DNA from: Candidatus Bipolaricaulia bacterium
GTDB taxonomy: Bacteria; Bipolaricaulota; Bipolaricaulia; JBHIAT01
NCBI GenBank assembly: GCA_046758705.1
Contig: JBHIAT010000080.1
Span: forward strand, 1 to 15,556
Length of the DNA: 15,556 nucleotides
Reading direction: 5' to 3'
Shown: positions 3,444-12,418 of the stretch, one piece after another
How the letters are laid out: each line of letters begins with the position of its first letter
Position numbering within the stretch: the stretch's first letter is position 1
Notes under the pieces: generated by a model
What the model was told of the DNA's origin: nothing
The model's input: the letters and a program-made list of their open reading frames with translations, nothing else
Database searches by the model: none
Translations under genes and position numbers: made by a program

Positions 3444-4472
3444 ATGCATAACCGATATACTCGACTGTTTTCTATCGCAGTTCTGGTCTTGCTCGCCGCT
3501 CTGTTAGGAGGCTCTGCTGTCGCGTTTGCCCAGGATGGACATCCTCAATCGACGTTCGATGCAGCCGGCCCGGTGGCAGAGAGGCAGCGCGATCTGTTGT
3601 GGTTCATCATCTGGGTGGCGGTCGGGATCTTAGTCGTTGTCGAGGGGGCATTGATCTATGCGATCATCCGCTACCGGCGCCGGCCGAGACAGGCGGGAGA
3701 ACCCGAGCCGGTTCACGGACACTCCGGGTTGGAAATCAGCTGGACGATCGCCCCGGTGCTCATCGTGGCCGCCATCGGTGTGTTCACGGTTCGCACGATT
3801 TTCGATCTTTCCAGTCCGCCGGTGCCCGACGCGTTGCAGATCAAAGTGACCGCGTATCAATGGTGGTGGGAGTTCCAATATCCAGACGCGGAGGTCGTCA
3901 CCGCCAATGAACTGCATATCCCGGTCGGCCAGGTCGTCAATCTCAACATCGAATCGCAGGACGTCATCCACAGCTTCTGGGTTCCCAAACTTGCGGGTAA
4001 GATGGATGCCATTCCGAACCAGTTGAATCAGCTGTGGCTGAGGGCGGACCAGTCCGGCATCTATTGGGGGCAATGCGCCGAGTTCTGCGGGATTGCCCAT
4101 GCGTTCATGCGATTTCGGGTGATCGCCCAACCGGAGGATGAGTTCCAGGCATGGCTGCAAGTGCAGCAACAGCCGGCTGTGACGCTGGTGGATGACCTGG
4201 CCAGAAAGGGTGCCGAGATCTTTGCGCGAAGCGCATGTATCGGCTGCCACACGGTTGCGGGCACACTCGCTCAAGGGAAGATCGGACCGGATCTCACCCA
4301 CTTTGGGGATCGCACGACCCTGGGCGCCGGAATTTTGGACAATAACCCGGAGAACCTGGCGGATTGGCTGCGCGACCCTCAGGCGGTCAAACCGGGGAAC
4401 CGGATGCCGAATTTGAATTTAAGCGAGGATGAGATCTCAGCGCTGGCTGCCTATCTACAGAGCTTGAAATAA
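3444..4472 (+). CDS. ctaC: Cytochrome c oxidase subunit II with C-terminal cytochrome c domain (caa3 type)
   Basis: Signal peptide, two TM helices, LEISWT and QWWWEFQY. CuA ligands DVIHSFW and CAEFCGIAHAFM. Heme c motif CIGCH (4236-4250) with distal Met in KPGNRMP. Start is GTG 3441 or ATG 3444. Confidence 0.96.
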   Translation: MHNRYTRLFSIAVLVLLAALLGGSAVAFAQDGHPQSTFDAAGPVAERQRDLLWFIIWVAVGILVVVEGALIYAIIRYRRRPRQAGEPEPVHGHSGLEISWTIAPVLIVAAIGVFTVRTIFDLSSPPVPDALQIKVTAYQWWWEFQYPDAEVVTANELHIPVGQVVNLNIESQDVIHSFWVPKLAGKMDAIPNQLNQLWLRADQSGIYWGQCAEFCGIAHAFMRFRVIAQPEDEFQAWLQVQQQPAVTLVDDLARKGAEIFARSACIGCHTVAGTLAQGKIGPDLTHFGDRTTLGAGILDNNPENLADWLRDPQAVKPGNRMPNLNLSEDEISALAAYLQSLK

Positions 4473-4496
4473 TATGGGGAGGTGGAGATATCAGTC

Positions 4497-6380
4497 ATGG
4501 CAGTGATCGATGAAGCAGTACCCGGGACACTGCGCCGTCCCACTGCCAAGTCGGGGTGGTGGAGTTGGGTGGTTACCGTCGATCACAAGAGGATCGGGAT
4601 CCTGTACGGCACGACCGCGATCATCTTCTTCATATTCGGCGGGATCGAGGCGCTGATCATGCGGTTGCAGCTTGCCCAGGCCAACCTGAAGATCGTGGAC
4701 CCGGAGACCTACAACCAGTTGTTCACCATGCACGGGACTACGATGGTGTTCCTGGCCATCATGCCGCTGAGCGCGGCGTTCTTCAACTTCATCGTGCCGT
4801 TGATGATCGGCGCCCGCGACGTGGCATTTCCGCGGCTCAACGCGTTCAGCTATTGGTTGTTCCTCCTCGGCGGCATCTTCCTCAACTCCAGCTGGTTTTT
4901 GGGGGGTGCACCCAATGCCGGGTGGTTCGGCTACGCCAATCTGACCGGAGGGACGTTCAACCCGGGTTTGGGCATCGACTTTTGGGTGCTGGGCCTGCTG
5001 CTGCTGGGGATTGCGTCCCTGGCGTCCGCACTGAACTTTATCGTCACCATCGTCAACATGCGGGCTCCGGGAATGACGCTGATGCGGATGCCGGTGTTCG
5101 TCTGGATGACGCTCGTCACCGCGATTTTGATCGTCCTGGCGTTTCCGGTGATTACGGTGGCCCTGATCGAGCTTTTGTTCGACCGCTTGTTCGGTGCCAA
5201 CTTCTTTCTCCCGGCCGCAGGCGCCGATCCGCTGCTATGGCAACACCTGTTTTGGATCTTCGGCCATCCCGAGGTGTACATCCTGATCCTGCCCGCGATG
5301 GGCATTGTCTCGGAGATCTTGCCCAGCTTCGCACGGAAACCGTTGTTCGGTTATCCGTTCGTGGTCCTCTCCGGCGTGTTCATCGGCTTTATGGGGTTTG
5401 CAGTCTGGAGCCACCATATGTTCACCGTGGGTCTGGGCCCGATAGCGAACTCGGTGTTTGCACTGACCACGATGGCGATCGCCGTACCGACCGGCGTCAA
5501 GATCTTCAACTGGATCGCCACGCTGTGGGGAGGCACGATCCGGATGAGAACACCGTTGCTGTTTGCGGTCGGCTTCATCGCGATGTTCATCATCGGGGGG
5601 CTGAGCGGTATCATGCACTCCTCGGCTCCGACCGATGCGCAACAGCAGGACACTTACTTCGTCGTCGGCCACTTCCACTACGTCCTGTTCGGCGGCAGCC
5701 TGTTCGCCATCTTCGCCGGCATCTACTACTGGTTCCCCAAGATCACCGGCCGCCTGCTCAGCGAGCGCCTCGGCAAGGTCCACTTCTGGATGACGTTTAT
5801 CGGATTCAATGTCGCGTTCTTCCCGTTCCACTTCTTGGGTCTCCTGGGGATGCCGCGCCGCATCTATACGTACGATGCTGGATTGGGCTTGGATCGGTGG
5901 AATTTGGTGTCGACCGCCGGGGCGTTCTTCCTGGCGCTGTCGGTGGCCGTATTTGTGTATGCCATGATCCGCAGCCTCCGAACAGGAGAACCGGCCGGGA
6001 ACGATCCTTGGGACGCTCGGACCCTGGAGTGGACCATCTCCTCGCCGCCTCCGGAGTACAACTTTGCGACGATCCCGACGATACACAGCCGAGATGCATT
6101 CTGGGAGCAGAAGCAGGGGGTGATCGCTGGAGGTGAAACGGTCGGTGATAACCCCGGCGGAGAAAAACAGGGAGAGGGAGAGGGAGAGCATATCCATATG
6201 CCCAGCCCCTCCTACTTTCCGGTGGTGACGGCGATCGGTCTGACGCTGACCATCTACGGACTGCTTTACCTCCGTCCCATTCTTCCTGGTATCGTACTCG
6301 CCGGCATCGGATTAATCGTGATGCTCACCGGCATCTATGGTTGGGCGTTCGAACCGGTCTCGGAACCGACGAGTGAATAG
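4497..6380 (+). CDS. ctaD: Cytochrome c oxidase subunit I, A1 type
   Basis: TVDHKRIG (D-channel Asp), TMHGTTM, WIFGHPEVY (A1 Glu), VWSHHM, PTGVK (K-channel), GHFHY and MPRR. Two extra C-terminal TM helices. ATG 4497 is preferred from the GGAGGTGGAG RBS spacing; the ORF track starts at GTG 4482. Confidence 0.98.
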   Translation: MAVIDEAVPGTLRRPTAKSGWWSWVVTVDHKRIGILYGTTAIIFFIFGGIEALIMRLQLAQANLKIVDPETYNQLFTMHGTTMVFLAIMPLSAAFFNFIVPLMIGARDVAFPRLNAFSYWLFLLGGIFLNSSWFLGGAPNAGWFGYANLTGGTFNPGLGIDFWVLGLLLLGIASLASALNFIVTIVNMRAPGMTLMRMPVFVWMTLVTAILIVLAFPVITVALIELLFDRLFGANFFLPAAGADPLLWQHLFWIFGHPEVYILILPAMGIVSEILPSFARKPLFGYPFVVLSGVFIGFMGFAVWSHHMFTVGLGPIANSVFALTTMAIAVPTGVKIFNWIATLWGGTIRMRTPLLFAVGFIAMFIIGGLSGIMHSSAPTDAQQQDTYFVVGHFHYVLFGGSLFAIFAGIYYWFPKITGRLLSERLGKVHFWMTFIGFNVAFFPFHFLGLLGMPRRIYTYDAGLGLDRWNLVSTAGAFFLALSVAVFVYAMIRSLRTGEPAGNDPWDARTLEWTISSPPPEYNFATIPTIHSRDAFWEQKQGVIAGGETVGDNPGGEKQGEGEGEHIHMPSPSYFPVVTAIGLTLTIYGLLYLRPILPGIVLAGIGLIVMLTGIYGWAFEPVSEPTSE

Positions 6381-7840: not shown

Positions 7841-8755
7841 TTGCTGACCGATACCGATACGGCTACTGCTATCAATTGGCACTGGCATCCAGACGTGTTT
7901 GTCGTGCTGCTGCTGATCCAAGGTGCTTACCTCCTCGGTGTCGGACCGCTGCGTCGGCACTTCGATTGGGCGGATTCGGTAGACCCCCGTCATGTCGCCG
8001 CGTTCTCACTGGGAGTTCTGGTCATCTTTATTGCCGCAGGCACGCCGCTCCACGAGCTGAGCGAGGGGTATCTGTTCAGCGCACATATGCTGCAGCACGT
8101 GCTGCTGACGCTCGTGGCTCCCCCGTTGCTGCTGCTGGGAACGCCGGGTTGGTTGCTGCGTCCGCTGCTGCGTTTGCCGATCGTTATGCCGGCGGCACGG
8201 TTTCTGACTCTGCCGCTGGTGGCGTTTGTCCTGTTCAACGTGGTGTTCGCGATCTGGCATCTGCCGGTCCTTTATGATTTGACGCTCGGGGATCACCCGA
8301 TTCATATCGCCGAGCATCTGCTGTTTATGGGAACCGCTCTGCTGATGTGGTGGCCGATTTTGAGCCCACTGCCCGAGTTGCCTCGGCTTTCCTATCCGAG
8401 CCAAATGCTCTATCTGTTCTTGCTATCGGTCGCACAGCTCCCGGTGTTTGCGGTGATCACCTTTTCCGATAGGCTGCTCTATACGGGATATGCCGAGGCA
8501 CCGCGACTGTGGAATCTCTCGGCCCTCAACGACCAACAGATCGGCGGGATCTTTATGAAGGTCGCCGGCATGCTGATCTTTTTGCTGGTGCTCGCCATCG
8601 TATTTTTCCGATGGTTCCATCACGAGGCGGAACAGGAGCAGGCACCGGCCCTGACCCGTCGTCAACACGTCCTCATTCAAGACCTGGAGAAGCACTTGGA
8701 GACCGAAGGAACGAAAAAAGACGGAGGCGCAGAGATAGATCATAGATCAGAGTAA
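7841..8755 (+). CDS. ctaG: caa3-type oxidase assembly factor CtaG
   Basis: YLFSAHMLQHVLLTLVAPPLLLLG, WHLP.LY, H..EH, WWP and DQQIGG motifs. Position after the structural subunits. TTG start is uncertain. Confidence 0.92.
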   Translation: MLTDTDTATAINWHWHPDVFVVLLLIQGAYLLGVGPLRRHFDWADSVDPRHVAAFSLGVLVIFIAAGTPLHELSEGYLFSAHMLQHVLLTLVAPPLLLLGTPGWLLRPLLRLPIVMPAARFLTLPLVAFVLFNVVFAIWHLPVLYDLTLGDHPIHIAEHLLFMGTALLMWWPILSPLPELPRLSYPSQMLYLFLLSVAQLPVFAVITFSDRLLYTGYAEAPRLWNLSALNDQQIGGIFMKVAGMLIFLLVLAIVFFRWFHHEAEQEQAPALTRRQHVLIQDLEKHLETEGTKKDGGAEIDHRSE

Positions 8756-8787
8756 TCGTTGAAAGGAGAAAGGAGGGTTTCCCGATC

Positions 8788-8973
8788 TTGACAAACCGTC
8801 CGTTTTTCCCCTTGTTGGTGCCGTTGATGGCCGTGCTGTTCATTGCCGTGATCGCAGGTGGGCTGGGGGCACTGTTCTTAGAGATTGGCCGAAACGGGAC
8901 GATCGCCTTGGGATTGGTCATCGTCATCTTGGTGCCGGCTGTAAGTGCCCTGTTGGCCCAAACTAGACGCTAG
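8788..8973 (+). CDS. Small 2-TM membrane protein (61 aa), probably co-transcribed with the oxidase operon
   Basis: Strong RBS (GAAAGGAGGG) before the TTG. Two hydrophobic segments joined by EIGRNG, and a basic C-terminus. Lies 32 bp after ctaG. Confidence 0.65.
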
Positions 8974-9200
8974 GTTGGTGATGATGCGGTTAAAAGATCG
9001 GGTGGCGATCATCACCGGGGCGGGCCGGGGCATCGGGCACGAAACGGCGCAGCTGTTCGCCGATCACGGGGCCACCGTCATCGTCTGTGACCTCGATGAA
9101 GCCGCGGGCAAGGATACCGAAGATCCCACTGGGACGATTCGCTCAGCCCCGCGACGTGGCCAACCTCTATCTGTTCTTGGCCAGCGACGAGTCAGATTAT

Positions 9201-9349
9201 TCATTCTTTCAGCGGCTAAAACCGCGTACTTTTAGTGCAATGCTATGTGTACCAGGCCGGGCGCGGCCTGCGTGGAGACGAGAACCTCTGCTTGTGCAAG
9301 TTCCGTCTGTGAAGCGAGAAGCCACGTACTTTAGTGCGTGGAGCGTCAC
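9201..9349 (+). mobile_element. Non-autonomous IS200/IS605-family mini-element (149 bp; left end plus omega-RNA-like right end, no tnpA or tnpB)
   Basis: Removing 9201-9349 restores GAT TAT ATC AAC (D-Y-I-N) with no target duplication. Inserted 3' of TTAT and ends in TCAC. Right end: GAAG followed by hairpin CCACGTAC-TTTA-GTGCGTGG (9318-9341). Left end: AAAA followed by the related hairpin CCGCGTAC-TTTTA-GTGC (9218-9238). Confidence 0.88.
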
Positions 9350-9369
9350 ATCAACGGAGCCGTCATCAC
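9253..9369 (+). ncRNA. Putative TnpB omega-RNA (reRNA) scaffold with a flank-derived guide
   Basis: GCCTGCGTGGAG...GTGAAGCGAGAAG-hairpin-TCAC layout, as in IS605/IS1341 right ends. Stem AGACG(A)GAAC / GTTCCGTCT. GTGA (9309-9312) can pair with the terminal TCAC (9346-9349), like the omega-RNA pseudoknot. The guide would be 9350-9369. Boundaries are approximate and expression is not shown. Confidence 0.6.
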
Positions 9370-9436
9370 CGTGGACGGCGGATTGGTGGTATAATCGACT
9401 GTGCTGGCTGAGGTCAGGCTCAGATCCGGTTCTGGG

Positions 9437-9515: not shown

Positions 9516-10607
9516 ATTTACTCCGTCAAGCTATTGACCGATATTCTCGATCTGTCTGAGCAGCAGGTGCGGTGCCGGATTCACGCCCTGGGAAGCTTGC
9601 TCGACCCGTACAGGGAGTGCGGGAGCCACAACCGCATCCTGATTCGCTCAGAGGGCCTGGAACTGCTCGAGAAGCTTGAGTTCTACCTGGCTCCCGGCCG
9701 GACCATTCACCATGCAGTAGAGCACCTGCGGGACGAAATCGAAGGGAGCAACGTACACCGCCCGCTTCCTGCCCCTCCGAAACCCCTGTCATCCCCCCAA
9801 GCACCGTGGTCACCTGAGCATATGTCATCGGAGTTGGGTTTGGAGAGTGAGCTCGTCGATCAGATGAAGGATTGGATTGGTTATCTCAAAAATCAGATCG
9901 AACGGCTCCACGAAGAGAAGAACCAACTCATCCAGCAAATGTTGATGGTGAAGGACTATCAGATCGACCGCCTGCAAACGATACTCCACCACCAGTTCGC
10001 CAAGGCGGAGTTGGGACAGGTCACCCAGATGCTCACCCGTGCGCTGCTCAGTCTGGTGGGCAAAGAAGAACTGGAGCAGGTGGGCGATTACCTCAAGGGC
10101 GGCGGTGTCGATGCCGAGGTTGCCGTCGATATCGAGCGAGAGTTGAACGAGGTCATCGGCAAAGATGACCGCTTGGAAGACGATTACATCGCCAAAGACG
10201 GCCATCGGTGTGACTCCAAGCACGAGAAACAGATCGACGACTACCTGTACGAGAAAGTCGTCCCCCACATTCGCGAACCCCGATATCCTTGGCACCCCAA
10301 ACTCAACCCCGGTACGCCCAACAGCGATCTGACGGAGGAGGACTGGGCACTGTCCCTGTATGCCACCTGGAAGGTCGGAAGGGTGTTCATCGAGTACTTC
10401 CCCCGAGGGCACCCCAAGCTCGAACGGGAGATCGAGCAGAAACATCAGCTGGCGAAAGAAACCGGCATCGAGTTGATCGCTATCTATTCGGAAGATATGG
10501 AGAATTCGGAGTGGCAGGAGAAGCTCCGGCCGTTGACCGAGAAGGGAGGCTGGCGGTACCGCAGTCAGAGTCGGGGCCAGGGCCGAGGGAAACGCCCAAA
10601 GTTCTAG
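9516..10607 (+). CDS. Hypothetical multidomain protein: N-terminal HTH-like domain, Pro-rich linker, coiled coil, C-terminal PD-(D/E)XK/restriction-endonuclease-like domain
   Basis: The frame is open from 9510 and reads IYSVKLLTDILDLSEQQVRCRI (MerR-like HTH pattern), then PLPAPPKPLSSPQAP, a heptad-rich region ELVDQMKDWIGYLKNQIERLHEEKNQLIQQ, and DGHRCDSKHEKQIDDYLY...EPRYP...DW...VFIEYF...K...GIELIAIY. Start is ATT 9516 or TTG 9534. Confidence 0.75.
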   Translation: MYSVKLLTDILDLSEQQVRCRIHALGSLLDPYRECGSHNRILIRSEGLELLEKLEFYLAPGRTIHHAVEHLRDEIEGSNVHRPLPAPPKPLSSPQAPWSPEHMSSELGLESELVDQMKDWIGYLKNQIERLHEEKNQLIQQMLMVKDYQIDRLQTILHHQFAKAELGQVTQMLTRALLSLVGKEELEQVGDYLKGGGVDAEVAVDIERELNEVIGKDDRLEDDYIAKDGHRCDSKHEKQIDDYLYEKVVPHIREPRYPWHPKLNPGTPNSDLTEEDWALSLYATWKVGRVFIEYFPRGHPKLEREIEQKHQLAKETGIELIAIYSEDMENSEWQEKLRPLTEKGGWRYRSQSRGQGRGKRPKF

Positions 10608-10667: not shown

Positions 10668-11288
10668 TTAGAACCTCATCCGCCACCGCAGGCCACGATG
10701 TCTGCCGAAGGGCCTGAATTTGAATTCGAACTCAATACCCAGCTGCTCTCGGGCCACCCGCGCGGCATCCCGGCTGCTGAACCGCCGCCACACGCCGGTC
10801 AACACCTTGCCAGCTGCCAGGATCACCAGGCTGTTCTGGAAGTCAGCCAGGGACTGAGCTTCGAATGTCGTCTTGAGAGTATCCCTGATTACTCCCACGG
10901 GAGTGTTCACCCAGTCGATGGCCGTGATCGTATTTCTGAGATCGGCCGGGAGATTCTGCCAGGTGAACAGGAGGGTCGCTCCTTTCACGCCGAGGAAGAC
11001 GGCGGCGTGCAACACGCCTTTCCCCACCTCTCCGTTCCTGAACTGTCCCAACCCCGGGAACAGGGCAGACTGTCCCGCCCGTCTTATCGGGGTCGTCAGC
11101 AGGTTGACCCGGTTGCGGGTCGCCTCGAAATCCTCCAAAGTGAGCTCCCCCAGACGCTTCGATCTGATGTCCTCCGGGAGTAGTTGCTCCAGGGCAGGCC
11201 TGCCTCTTTCCGTCTGCGCCGCATGGCTGACGACAGCCATTGCCATCAGTGAAGCGACCAACAGAATTGACACTACGAAACGCTTCAT
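10668..11288 (-). CDS. Secreted/envelope hypothetical protein (206 aa) with an SALFPGLGQ motif
   Basis: GAGGAGG RBS before ATG 11288. Sec signal peptide MKRFVVSILLVASLMAMAVVSHA. SALFPGLGQFRNGEVGKG motif (DUF5683-like). Terminal Phe. The longer N-terminus in the ORF track overlaps the permease and is rejected. Confidence 0.75.
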   Translation of the reverse strand: MKRFVVSILLVASLMAMAVVSHAAQTERGRPALEQLLPEDIRSKRLGELTLEDFEATRNRVNLLTTPIRRAGQSALFPGLGQFRNGEVGKGVLHAAVFLGVKGATLLFTWQNLPADLRNTITAIDWVNTPVGVIRDTLKTTFEAQSLADFQNSLVILAAGKVLTGVWRRFSSRDAARVAREQLGIEFEFKFRPFGRHRGLRWRMRF

Positions 11289-11305
11289 TTTGACCTCCTC
11301 TGTCC

Positions 11306-12418
11306 TTACTCTCGTGCGAAGTTGAAGGTGCGCAACGCAACGATGAACGTCAGGACGATCCAGCCACCCACAAACGCCAGCTCCGTTCCTAACGCCAACA
11401 GCGTCTCCCCGTCGAGCGCCACCGCTCGCAACGCCTTCAGCAACCACGTCAACGGCAGCACCTCGACGATCCTCTGCATGATCCCCGGCAGCGCGTCGAC
11501 CGGGAAAAACACCCCCGCCAGGAACATCATCGGCATGGTGATCACGTTCGCCATCCCCTCAGCCGACCTCGATGTCTGGCTCAAGCCGGCGACGATGAAC
11601 CCGAGGTTCAGGAAGATCAGGTTCCCCAACAGCGCCAGGATGTAGATATAGATCAGATTGCCATAGATGTTGACGTCGTAGACAAGCTTGGCGATCCCAA
11701 TGATCAACGACGTCTGCACCAGAGCCAAGATCAGGTAAGAGGTCACCTCGGCGGTGAGAAACCGCCTCACCGACAGCGGCGTCGCCAGAATCCGCTTCAG
11801 GATCCGCTGCTCTCGATACCGGGAGATGCTCACCGCGATCCCGATCACGGACGAGGTCATGAGCGCCATCCCGATGACGCCGGGCGTGAGGAAATCCATG
11901 TAAGTGAGCTGTTTGGCATCCAGGGGATGCTCCTCGAGCGTGAACAGCTGTGGGGCGCCTGCAGCTTGTAGATTGGCTTCGGACGTGAACTGGCGTAGGA
12001 ACCCGAGGACGATCGGATTCATCTGCACGTTCTTCTGATCGAAGTAAACCTGGAGTGCGGCGGTCGTGGTCGAAGGGAGCGACGCACCGGCACCGACTTG
12101 AGGCGACCCGGACCCGAACGACTCGGGGATGACGATGACGAAGCTCAGCTCACCGTCCTTGAGCGCCTGTCGACCGGTGGCCTCGTCGGTGATGGTCTCA
12201 TCAATCTCGAAGAAATCGATCTCGCGCAGTTGCTCCACCATGATCTGTGAGACTGGTGAATTCACCTGGTCGATGATGGCCACGTCCGCGCCTCCACCGT
12301 CGTCGAAGTTGAACAGGCCGAAGATGAGAATGAACATGATCGGGAAGACCAGGGCCCAAAAGAGCGTCTGGCGGTCGCGGTACATCATCTTGAGGTCGGC
12401 AATCAGTAACTTTAGCAT
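11306..12418 (-). CDS. ABC-2 type exporter permease
   Basis: RDRQTLFWALVFP, a large extracytoplasmic loop, YMDFLTPGV, REQRILKRILATP, FLAGVFFPVDALP and LPLT. Confidence 0.93.
   Translation of the reverse strand: MLKLLIADLKMMYRDRQTLFWALVFPIMFILIFGLFNFDDGGGADVAIIDQVNSPVSQIMVEQLREIDFFEIDETITDEATGRQALKDGELSFVIVIPESFGSGSPQVGAGASLPSTTTAALQVYFDQKNVQMNPIVLGFLRQFTSEANLQAAGAPQLFTLEEHPLDAKQLTYMDFLTPGVIGMALMTSSVIGIAVSISRYREQRILKRILATPLSVRRFLTAEVTSYLILALVQTSLIIGIAKLVYDVNIYGNLIYIYILALLGNLIFLNLGFIVAGLSQTSRSAEGMANVITMPMMFLAGVFFPVDALPGIMQRIVEVLPLTWLLKALRAVALDGETLLALGTELAFVGGWIVLTFIVALRTFNFARE

Follow-up and report, generated by a model that had tools for sequence, protein, structure and literature searches.

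An insert at positions 9201-9349 of a contig from a Candidatus Bipolaricaulia bacterium (JBHIAT010000080.1, assembly GCA_046758705.1) is very probably the fossil copy of a 343-bp, protein-less derivative of the IS200/IS605 transposon family, namely a palindrome-associated transposable element (PATE) that carries the guide RNA (omegaRNA) of a TnpB nuclease. The whole 15,556-nt stretch is here called the window, and position numbers without a contig name refer to it. Elements of this kind have already been described, some of them PATEs that encode omegaRNAs (PMC3119063; PMC10055086). An earlier note on the same DNA had called the insert a non-autonomous IS200/IS605 derivative without an open reading frame (ORF) and had placed both of its boundaries, a view upheld by repeats of the element, by homology of its ends to those of the tnpB element in C185, and by the lack of an ORF. 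The note had also taken the 149 bp to be the mobile unit, and this part has to be given up: the 149 bp are a single, internally deleted copy of the 343-bp element.

A repeated element without genes

The source genome (G000; 3.70 Mb in 319 contigs, 57% G+C) contains a family of related elements. C2, C45 and C120 each repeat the opening 36-38 nt of the insert, with 100% identity and straight after the tetranucleotide TTAT. Two full copies of 343 bp, in C45 and C120, define what is called here the A type; in them the two halves of the insert are parted by 194 extra bases, and the A-type subfamily is also present as contig-end fragments. Within this genome the contiguous 149-bp form occurs in the window only. 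A sister subfamily, B, comprises six copies of 321 bp with 100% identity at different sites, each after TTAT, and four contig-end fragments besides, the contigs stopping within B right ends. Six identical copies argue that transposition was recent, and on sequence grounds the B subfamily looks like a recent burst that fragments the assembly. Further variants lie in C106, C244 (D), C159 (E) and C144. All of the right ends listed (20/20, the window copy included) finish in GTCAC and then pass into unrelated flanks. The copies with common ends 3' of TTAT that the earlier note would have expected are thus found within the genome itself.

Insertion is strand-specific, 3' of TTAT. This tetranucleotide precedes 4/4 A-type and 6/6 B-type left ends (10/10 of those clearly bounded), and since its frequency in the source genome is only 0.00164 per position, chance does not account for the pattern. 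An 11th left end, in C106, fits TTAT if its boundary is moved 3 nt further in. The frames over the insert amount to one 46-aa ORF on the minus strand and to read-through frames in the ORF list, and both the 149 bp and the 343-bp parent are too short for a transposase.

Short, non-coding, repeated and palindromic sequences of this sort might also be a miniature inverted-repeat transposable element (MITE) of a DDE transposon, or repetitive extragenic palindromes (REP, or their bacterial interspersed mosaic elements, BIMEs) mobilised by a REP-associated tyrosine transposase (RAYT), and so stand outside IS200/IS605. That origin is extremely improbable given the ends. They are asymmetric (TCATTC... 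and ...GTCAC); terminal inverted repeats are absent, the 5' end TCATTCTT having no match in the reverse-complemented 3' end GTGACGCT; there is no target duplication; insertion is strand-specific 3' of TTAT; and both ends are homologous to an element that bears tnpB. The DDE-transposon MITE, which requires terminal inverted repeats and a target duplication, was rejected as neither is seen.

Guide and cleavage tetranucleotides

The IS200/IS605 assignment can also be read against IS608. In that element the left cleavage site (CL) TTAC goes with the left guide (GL) AAAG, and the right cleavage site (CR) TCAA with the right guide (GR) GAAT, with each guide placed 5' of its hairpin foot; 19 nt separate the left site from its hairpin, and 10 nt the right site from its own (PMC3201880, PMC5934647). 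The pairs found here are AAAA/TTAT and GAAG/TCAC. Compared with IS608 only the fourth base differs, and it does so complementarily, from G-C to A-T on the left and from T-A to G-C on the right. GAAG and TCAC are common to all right ends compared, and the stem of the right hairpin covaries among variants (e.g., CCAC/GTGG versus CCCC/GGGG). The earlier note had proposed that AAAA specifies TTAT and that GAAG specifies TCAC under the IS608 rule. Its coordinates for TTAT, the insert, AAAA, GAAG, the right hairpin and TCAC are all correct on re-reading of the sequence, the IS608 pairs that it quoted (AAAG-TTAC, GAAT-TCAA) are as printed in PMC3201880 and PMC5934647, and the pattern agrees with the rule. 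It is important to emphasize that this agreement is a match of patterns and not a test of function. The complementary change of the fourth position at both ends nonetheless gives the IS608 guide/cleavage rule independent support.

Decay of the window copy by internal deletion

Alignment to C45 and C120 matches the first 38 positions of the insert to parent positions 1-38 and its positions 39-149 to parent positions 233-343, and shows that parent positions 39-232 are gone. There is no evident microhomology at the junction. The deletion took the 3' arm GTGCGCGG of the left hairpin (cut after GTGC), a sigma-70-like promoter and the 5' 140 nt of a structured RNA of ~251 nt; the window copy retains the outermost 38 nt on the left, together with the 111-nt 3' domain of the RNA and its right end. 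In the parent, the left hairpin CCGCGTAC-TTTTA-GTGCGCGG is close to the right hairpin, and the 343-bp copies thus have both near-terminal palindromes, of which the window copy keeps the right one intact and the left one cut. With DNA folding parameters, the first 60 nt of the left end give -15.6 kcal/mol for the parent versus -4.8 kcal/mol for the window copy, in which the hairpin is lost. The outer arm of the left hairpin, which the earlier note had described as imperfect, is imperfect indeed, and the deletion of parent positions 39-232 explains it.

The locus was also followed in Logan contigs of four public runs (X1-X4), which are hydrothermal-vent metagenomes of one study; such contigs drop rare variants. 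Joints between flank and element are carried by contigs of three runs, and in X1 and X2 a listed contig spans the junction 9238/9239 with at least 30 nt on both sides. The depth at the junction is 11.3 in X1 (record 5), where the flanks have 10.2-11.7, and 20.1 in X2 (record 10). Summed depth over the element is 57-360, compared with ~10 in its flanks. Other flanks are reached through loose ends, and in X4 several of them are unlike any right-end flank listed for the source genome. For the A-type left end one exit path is listed besides the deletion junction; its first 30 nt are PATE interior, and the contig concerned runs on further, in X1 by a median of 119 nt and in X3 by one of 121 nt.

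The 149-bp unit might itself be mobile at present if TnpA tolerates a shortened left hairpin. The cleavage sites and guide tetranucleotides of both ends are intact, the left stem still has four base pairs (GTAC/GTGC), and PATEs of Haloquadratum that consist of termini only, down to 52 bp, are suspected to move (PMC3119063). This is very unlikely all the same, in that the contiguous form is present once in the genome, the contig over the junction is of roughly single-copy depth in X1, and folding predicts no left hairpin, yet IS608 TnpA binds the subterminal palindromes (PMC3201880). Read as a deleted derivative of the 343-bp element, the window copy is most likely immobile and no longer excisable, stranded because its left hairpin and promoter have been lost. 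Read-through from the truncated gene upstream, which has the same orientation, could, as a speculation, still yield an intact 111-nt scaffold. A route of decay is documented in this copy, whereby an internal deletion strips one hairpin arm and the promoter and spares a whole minimal guide-RNA scaffold.

A promoter-like site and a probable guide-RNA scaffold

The RNA-like body of the parent element is 251 nt, from a conserved start TCTTTGAC to the right end. RNAalifold on six variants gave 75 pairs, 15 with compensatory changes, and divided the body into two domains, a 5' one in columns 1-134 and a 3' one that starts at column 142; the latter is exactly what the window copy keeps. The 3' domain aligns with the right ends of the tnpB elements C185 and C274, ~115 nt inward from the right end. 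Among nine sequences of the 111-nt domain, both sides have changed in 14/30 pairs, and pairing holds in 92.9% of cells; 0/500 shuffles reach this and slid controls reach 1-5, but the nine sequences are related, and the result is to be taken as support and not as a probability. A helix of 4 bp (columns 14-17 with 120-123) links the first part of the domain with the AGCG that comes just ahead of GTCAC, with 85.7% paired and two pairs doubly changed. Its topology is like that of the pseudoknot in the ISDra2 scaffold, an equivalence offered as analogy only. Judged from these comparisons, the right two-thirds of the insert appears to be a complete guide-RNA scaffold domain of 111 nt and not merely a transposon end.

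A promoter-like site, TTGACT-17-TATAAC, lies upstream of the RNA in the A-type parent and faces the right end. Aligned with it, B has TGGACT-17-TATAAT (10/12 matches, TG-extended) and E has TTGACT-18-TATAAT (11/12), and both of these were called by the promoter scan. The same scan finds no site inside the window copy. With Rfam, the window has no family at gathering score, and the 343-bp copy has only a match at chance level (E = 6.4).

The parent RNA need not be a guide: it might be an independent non-coding RNA that rides on the transposon, or the pairings might serve transposition of the single-stranded DNA only. For this it can be said that no tnpB in the genome, whether as DNA or translated, resembles the 5' 140 nt; that the 5' core is kept in a genome of the same class (G152, 85% complete) where no TnpB or TnpA was found; and that no Rfam family matches. 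We nevertheless give it a low probability, as the 3' 111 nt are homologous to right ends linked to tnpB and covary with them, the helix from the 5' end of the domain to bases near the end of the element resembles the ISDra2 pseudoknot (PMC10097598), and the promoter is directed at the right end.

The conserved 5' module

The 5' part of the parent RNA has a core of ~60 nt, TCTTTGAC...GTAAAACGTTGTGGGTA, that is nearly invariant across elements and better conserved than the scaffold behind it. A nested model with two helices fits this core with 95.8% paired and three pairs changed on both sides across genomes; the two-hairpin model of RNAalifold, which has 0 such pairs versus 3, was set aside. 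The module is fused to at least three types of right end: GTCAC, the C207-like TAACTCAC of C144, and GTTGAC, the last in G152 and in an unrelated metagenome-assembled genome (MAG; locus L070). Whatever the right end, it was seen on ORF-less IS200/IS605-type elements only, and never inside or beside a tnpB gene. Its origin as a remnant of tnpB coding sequence was rejected, with nhmmer, alignment and tblastx giving only noise.

The C144 element (L055, C144:4300-4800; match 4468-4591) is a chimera in which the 5' module runs straight into a C207-type right end, ...GAAGCCCACGCGCTTTAGCCTTGGGTAACTCAC, and the usual 3' domain is missing; its sequence suggests that the parts of the RNA are modular.

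Beyond the source genome, the ORF-less RNA element is present four to five times in G152; in this genome no Y1 TnpA and no TnpB was found above Pfam cut-offs, which its completeness of 85% and loss in binning may explain. Searches of the class and phylum, covering the same 184 genomes, returned G152 as the only real case besides the source genome, three others being matches of 23-31 nt with E = 1e-3 to 5e-3 that are taken as chance. An exact 26-mer of the module is absent from the genome-contig and metagenome-contig collections. A looser gapped pattern finds four stretches in genome contigs and none in metagenome contigs; three of the four belong to a Candidatus Bipolaricaulota MAG that is possibly the same genome as G152, and they are counted once.

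It is a tentative idea, and on balance an unlikely one, that the 5' 140 nt form an RNA module in its own right, hitherto undescribed and carried only by protein-less IS200/IS605 elements; no claim is made that it is unpublished. If it were so, the module could serve processing, stabilisation or expression and let a guide RNA live without a nuclease gene, or it could act as an RNA in some independent role. Apart from this module, the biology is as described for PATEs that encode omegaRNAs.

Gene-bearing relatives

The genes that the mini-elements lack are present elsewhere in the source genome, with 23 matches to the TnpB TNB domain and six to Y1_Tnp, three of the latter full-length and without stops (C27, C207, C257). 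The C185 element carries tnpB only; its product is a TnpB of 420 aa with OrfB_IS605, TNB and HTH domains that matches ISDra2 TnpB (8h1j) at E = 1.7e-58. This match shows the stretches GIDVG, FESLN and RDHNSA, which probably hold the RuvC acidic residues. The left end of C185, TTAT/...GCGGCTAAAAC-hairpin-GGATACAGC (in full TTAT/AGAAATACAGGCGGCTAAAAC-hairpin-GGATACAGCTGCC; the slash marks the boundary), aligns with the A-type left end. In nhmmer comparisons of C185 with the A type, the right end gives E = 8.7e-07 and the left end E = 0.014; the mini-elements thus share both ends with an element that bears tnpB only.

The element in C207 (L056, C207:1-2300) has an intact tnpA, with a product of 138 aa that matches Y1_Tnp at E = 5e-36. 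Its tnpB is apparently split between overlapping frames at 276-1244 and 106-447 on the minus strand, which suggests, from the sequence, that the nuclease gene is frameshifted. Its left end reads TTAT/...GTAAAA-hairpin and its right end GGAAG-hairpin-TAGCTCAC, ending ...TCAC. A full-length tnpA/tnpB element that shares the ends of the insert, which the earlier note would have counted as support, was found in part: the ends of the C185 tnpB element are homologous and full-length Y1 tnpA genes are present, but no gene-bearing element with the A-type left end was found. The three full-length Y1_Tnp genes, the six identical B copies at different sites and the X4 flanks unlike those listed are indirect signs of a mobilisation in trans.

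The interrupted gene

The insert lies in a gene of the short-chain dehydrogenase/reductase (SDR) family. Joining 9117-9200 to 9350-9394 in silico, with the insert removed, gives an alignment that is gap-free across residues 28/29 (D-Y/I-N-G) in 15/15 matches to SDR paralogs of the same genome, and the insertion was thus precise and without target duplication. This agrees with the earlier note, which had seen that excision of 9201-9349 rejoins these codons with no target-site duplication; intact SDR genes that contain the insert sequence would have spoken against it, and the SDR paralogs of the genome do not have it. The SDR gene was, or has become, a pseudogene independently of the insert. Its N-terminal 46 aa are in one frame and its C-terminal part in another, ~155 profile positions are gone, and there is a frameshift near 9105-9125. 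The SDR arrangement is identical in three runs, and no differences are listed in the contigs over 8500-9225. No second copy of the remnant, as a repeated gene tail, was found in the source genome.

A second SDR tail is seen in C198 (C198:4310-4520 of the source genome), where the tail (tblastn 4310-4423) adjoins the right end of a tnpB element (4444-4518, minus strand). Near the insert, the upstream gene at 7841-8755 encodes a Caa3_CtaG cytochrome oxidase assembly factor, and the neighbouring ORFs at 9534-10607 (+, 357 aa) and 10668-11447 (-, 258 aa) match none of the Pfam families at E <= 0.01. Coordinates of the features are collected in Table 1.

Table 1. Positions of the insert, its motifs, the interrupted gene and related copies
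Feature	Position	Strand	Remarks
TTAT	9197-9200	+	Target and left cleavage tetranucleotide; would double as transposon-adjacent motif (TAM) for a TnpB guide
Whole insert, 149 bp	9201-9349	+	Internally deleted copy of 343-bp A-type ORF-less IS200/IS605 element; own-genome searches, C45/C120 alignment
Left-end remnant, 38 nt	9201-9238	+	100% identical to left ends in C2, C45, C120
Left guide tetranucleotide AAAA	9218-9221	+	Within left-end remnant
Left hairpin 5' arm CCGCGTAC	9222-9229	+	Within left-end remnant
Left hairpin loop TTTTA	9230-9234	+	Within left-end remnant
Left hairpin 3' arm, GTGC only	9235-9238	+	Rest cut off by the deletion
Deletion junction (194 bp lost)	9238/9239	+	Parent alignment; crossed by Logan contigs
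Complete 111-nt 3' RNA domain (omegaRNA-type scaffold) including right end	9239-9349	+	Homology to tnpB-element right ends C185, C274; covariation
Right guide tetranucleotide GAAG	9318-9321	+	Directly 5' of right hairpin; conserved in all mini-element variants and tnpB-linked elements aligned
Right subterminal hairpin CCACGTAC-TTTA-GTGCGTGG	9322-9341	+	One T-G pair on this strand; forms in DNA fold
Right cleavage tetranucleotide TCAC	9346-9349	+	Last bases of element; GTCAC ends 20/20 right ends listed
Flank that a read-out omegaRNA would take as guide	9350-9365	+	Position expected from omegaRNA architecture (PMC10097598); 16-nt length borrowed from ISDra2
SDR gene remnant upstream of insert	8981-9200	+	Pfam adh_short positions 1-37 on 8981-9118; adh_short_C2 positions 197-223 of 236 on 9117-9200
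SDR remnant end, final 14 codons and stop (INGAVITVDGGLVV*)	9350-9394	+	Frame resumes after insert
B copies, source genome	C42:16621-16941; C63:2111-2431; C65:136-456; C85:12211-12531; C183:4022-4342(-); C279:725-1045
5' module loci, source genome (G000)	L002:1612-1751(-); L009:1354-1493; L010; L020; L054
5' module loci, G152 (same class)	L047; L051; L053; L058		ORF-less elements, right end ...GGGTCGTTGAC
5' module locus, unrelated MAG	L070:2330-2556(-)		One ORF-less element

Proposed life of the element

In the parent, the order would be a left end 3' of TTAT (AAAA guide and hairpin), a sigma-70-like promoter, the RNA of ~251 nt, and the right end (GAAG, hairpin, TCAC), with the last 111 nt of the RNA serving as the omegaRNA scaffold of an ISDra2-like TnpB. 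By a process established for the family, a TnpA of the Y1 HUH type made elsewhere would bind the hairpins of the top strand, the guide tetranucleotides would place cleavage, and the element would be lifted out as a single-stranded circle, leaving no scar, to be pasted 3' of TTAT at another site. The RNA would read through the right end and so gain the flank as its guide. A TnpB of the C185 type, likewise supplied from elsewhere, would then cut the emptied site of TTAT and flank, and recombination would restore the element, favouring its retention (PMC10055086). The copy in the window would have been inserted at the D-Y/I codons of the SDR gene and would then have lost 194 bp in place.

Several points weigh against this account. 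Excision, transposition, the RNA and its binding by TnpB are deduced for this element from sequence. No empty site or alternative joint across 9201-9349 is present among the Logan contigs of the four runs, which drop rare variants, and no RNA run with the locus is listed. The 40 nearest genomes, of the same class only, give no syntenic match for an orthologous empty site. That the deletion came after insertion is an argument of parsimony, this form being known from one copy only. The promoter-like site of the A type was uncalled by the scan because TATAAC lacks the final T. The hairpins of the elements that bear tnpA differ in sequence from A-type hairpins, and no autonomous, gene-bearing element with the A-type left end was found in the source genome or in the run contigs.

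Comparison with known systems

Elements such as these escape annotation that relies on ORFs, yet genes are interrupted by them and assemblies can break at them; here, contig-end copies of the family lie in C2, C273, C155, C171, C183 and C220. PATEs were defined in Haloquadratum walsbyi by the absence of inverted terminal repeats, palindromes near the termini, no target duplication, and a length that leaves no room for a transposase; individual copies with core deletions were described as well (PMC3119063). In its 343-bp copies the present family has all four defining features, ends related to those of IS605-type elements in its own genome, and an internal core deletion. It differs from the account given there in its bacterial host, from a hydrothermal-vent metagenome, and in a deletion that has no flanking direct repeat and cuts into the left palindrome instead of fusing two palindromes.

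PATEs often encode omegaRNAs, which are necessarily used in trans, as reported by Meers et al. (PMC10055086). The PATE-like elements of Geobacillus stearothermophilus are likewise protein-less, with conserved ends, a scaffold that abuts the right end, and TnpA and TnpB that come from other elements. Activity was shown for them, whereas here it is deduced, and the present elements have in addition a conserved 5' module of ~140 nt, of which the Geobacillus elements may also have some counterpart.

For IS608, the common features are insertion 3' of a tetranucleotide, a left cleavage site outside the element and a right one inside it, and a guide 5' of each hairpin foot. The spacing differs: TTAT lies 21 nt from the hairpin foot here versus 19 in IS608, and the distance between hairpin foot and end is 8 nt versus 10; the hairpins have other sequences, and the element described here is without genes.

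A parallel for the RNA is ISDra2, for which a scaffold of 116 nt suffices and the 231-nt transcript can do without its 5' region; a pseudoknot arises where bases immediately ahead of the guide pair with the 5' part of the scaffold, and the guide lies directly 3' of the right end (PMC10097598). The TnpB of C185 is a clear homologue of the ISDra2 enzyme, the scaffold here is 111 nt versus 116 nt, and its 5' end is likewise predicted to pair just upstream of the guide. The two differ in the TAM, which would be TTAT here versus TTGAT in ISDra2, and in the upstream part of the transcript, which in the Bipolaricaulia elements is a conserved non-coding module and not the 3' end of tnpB.

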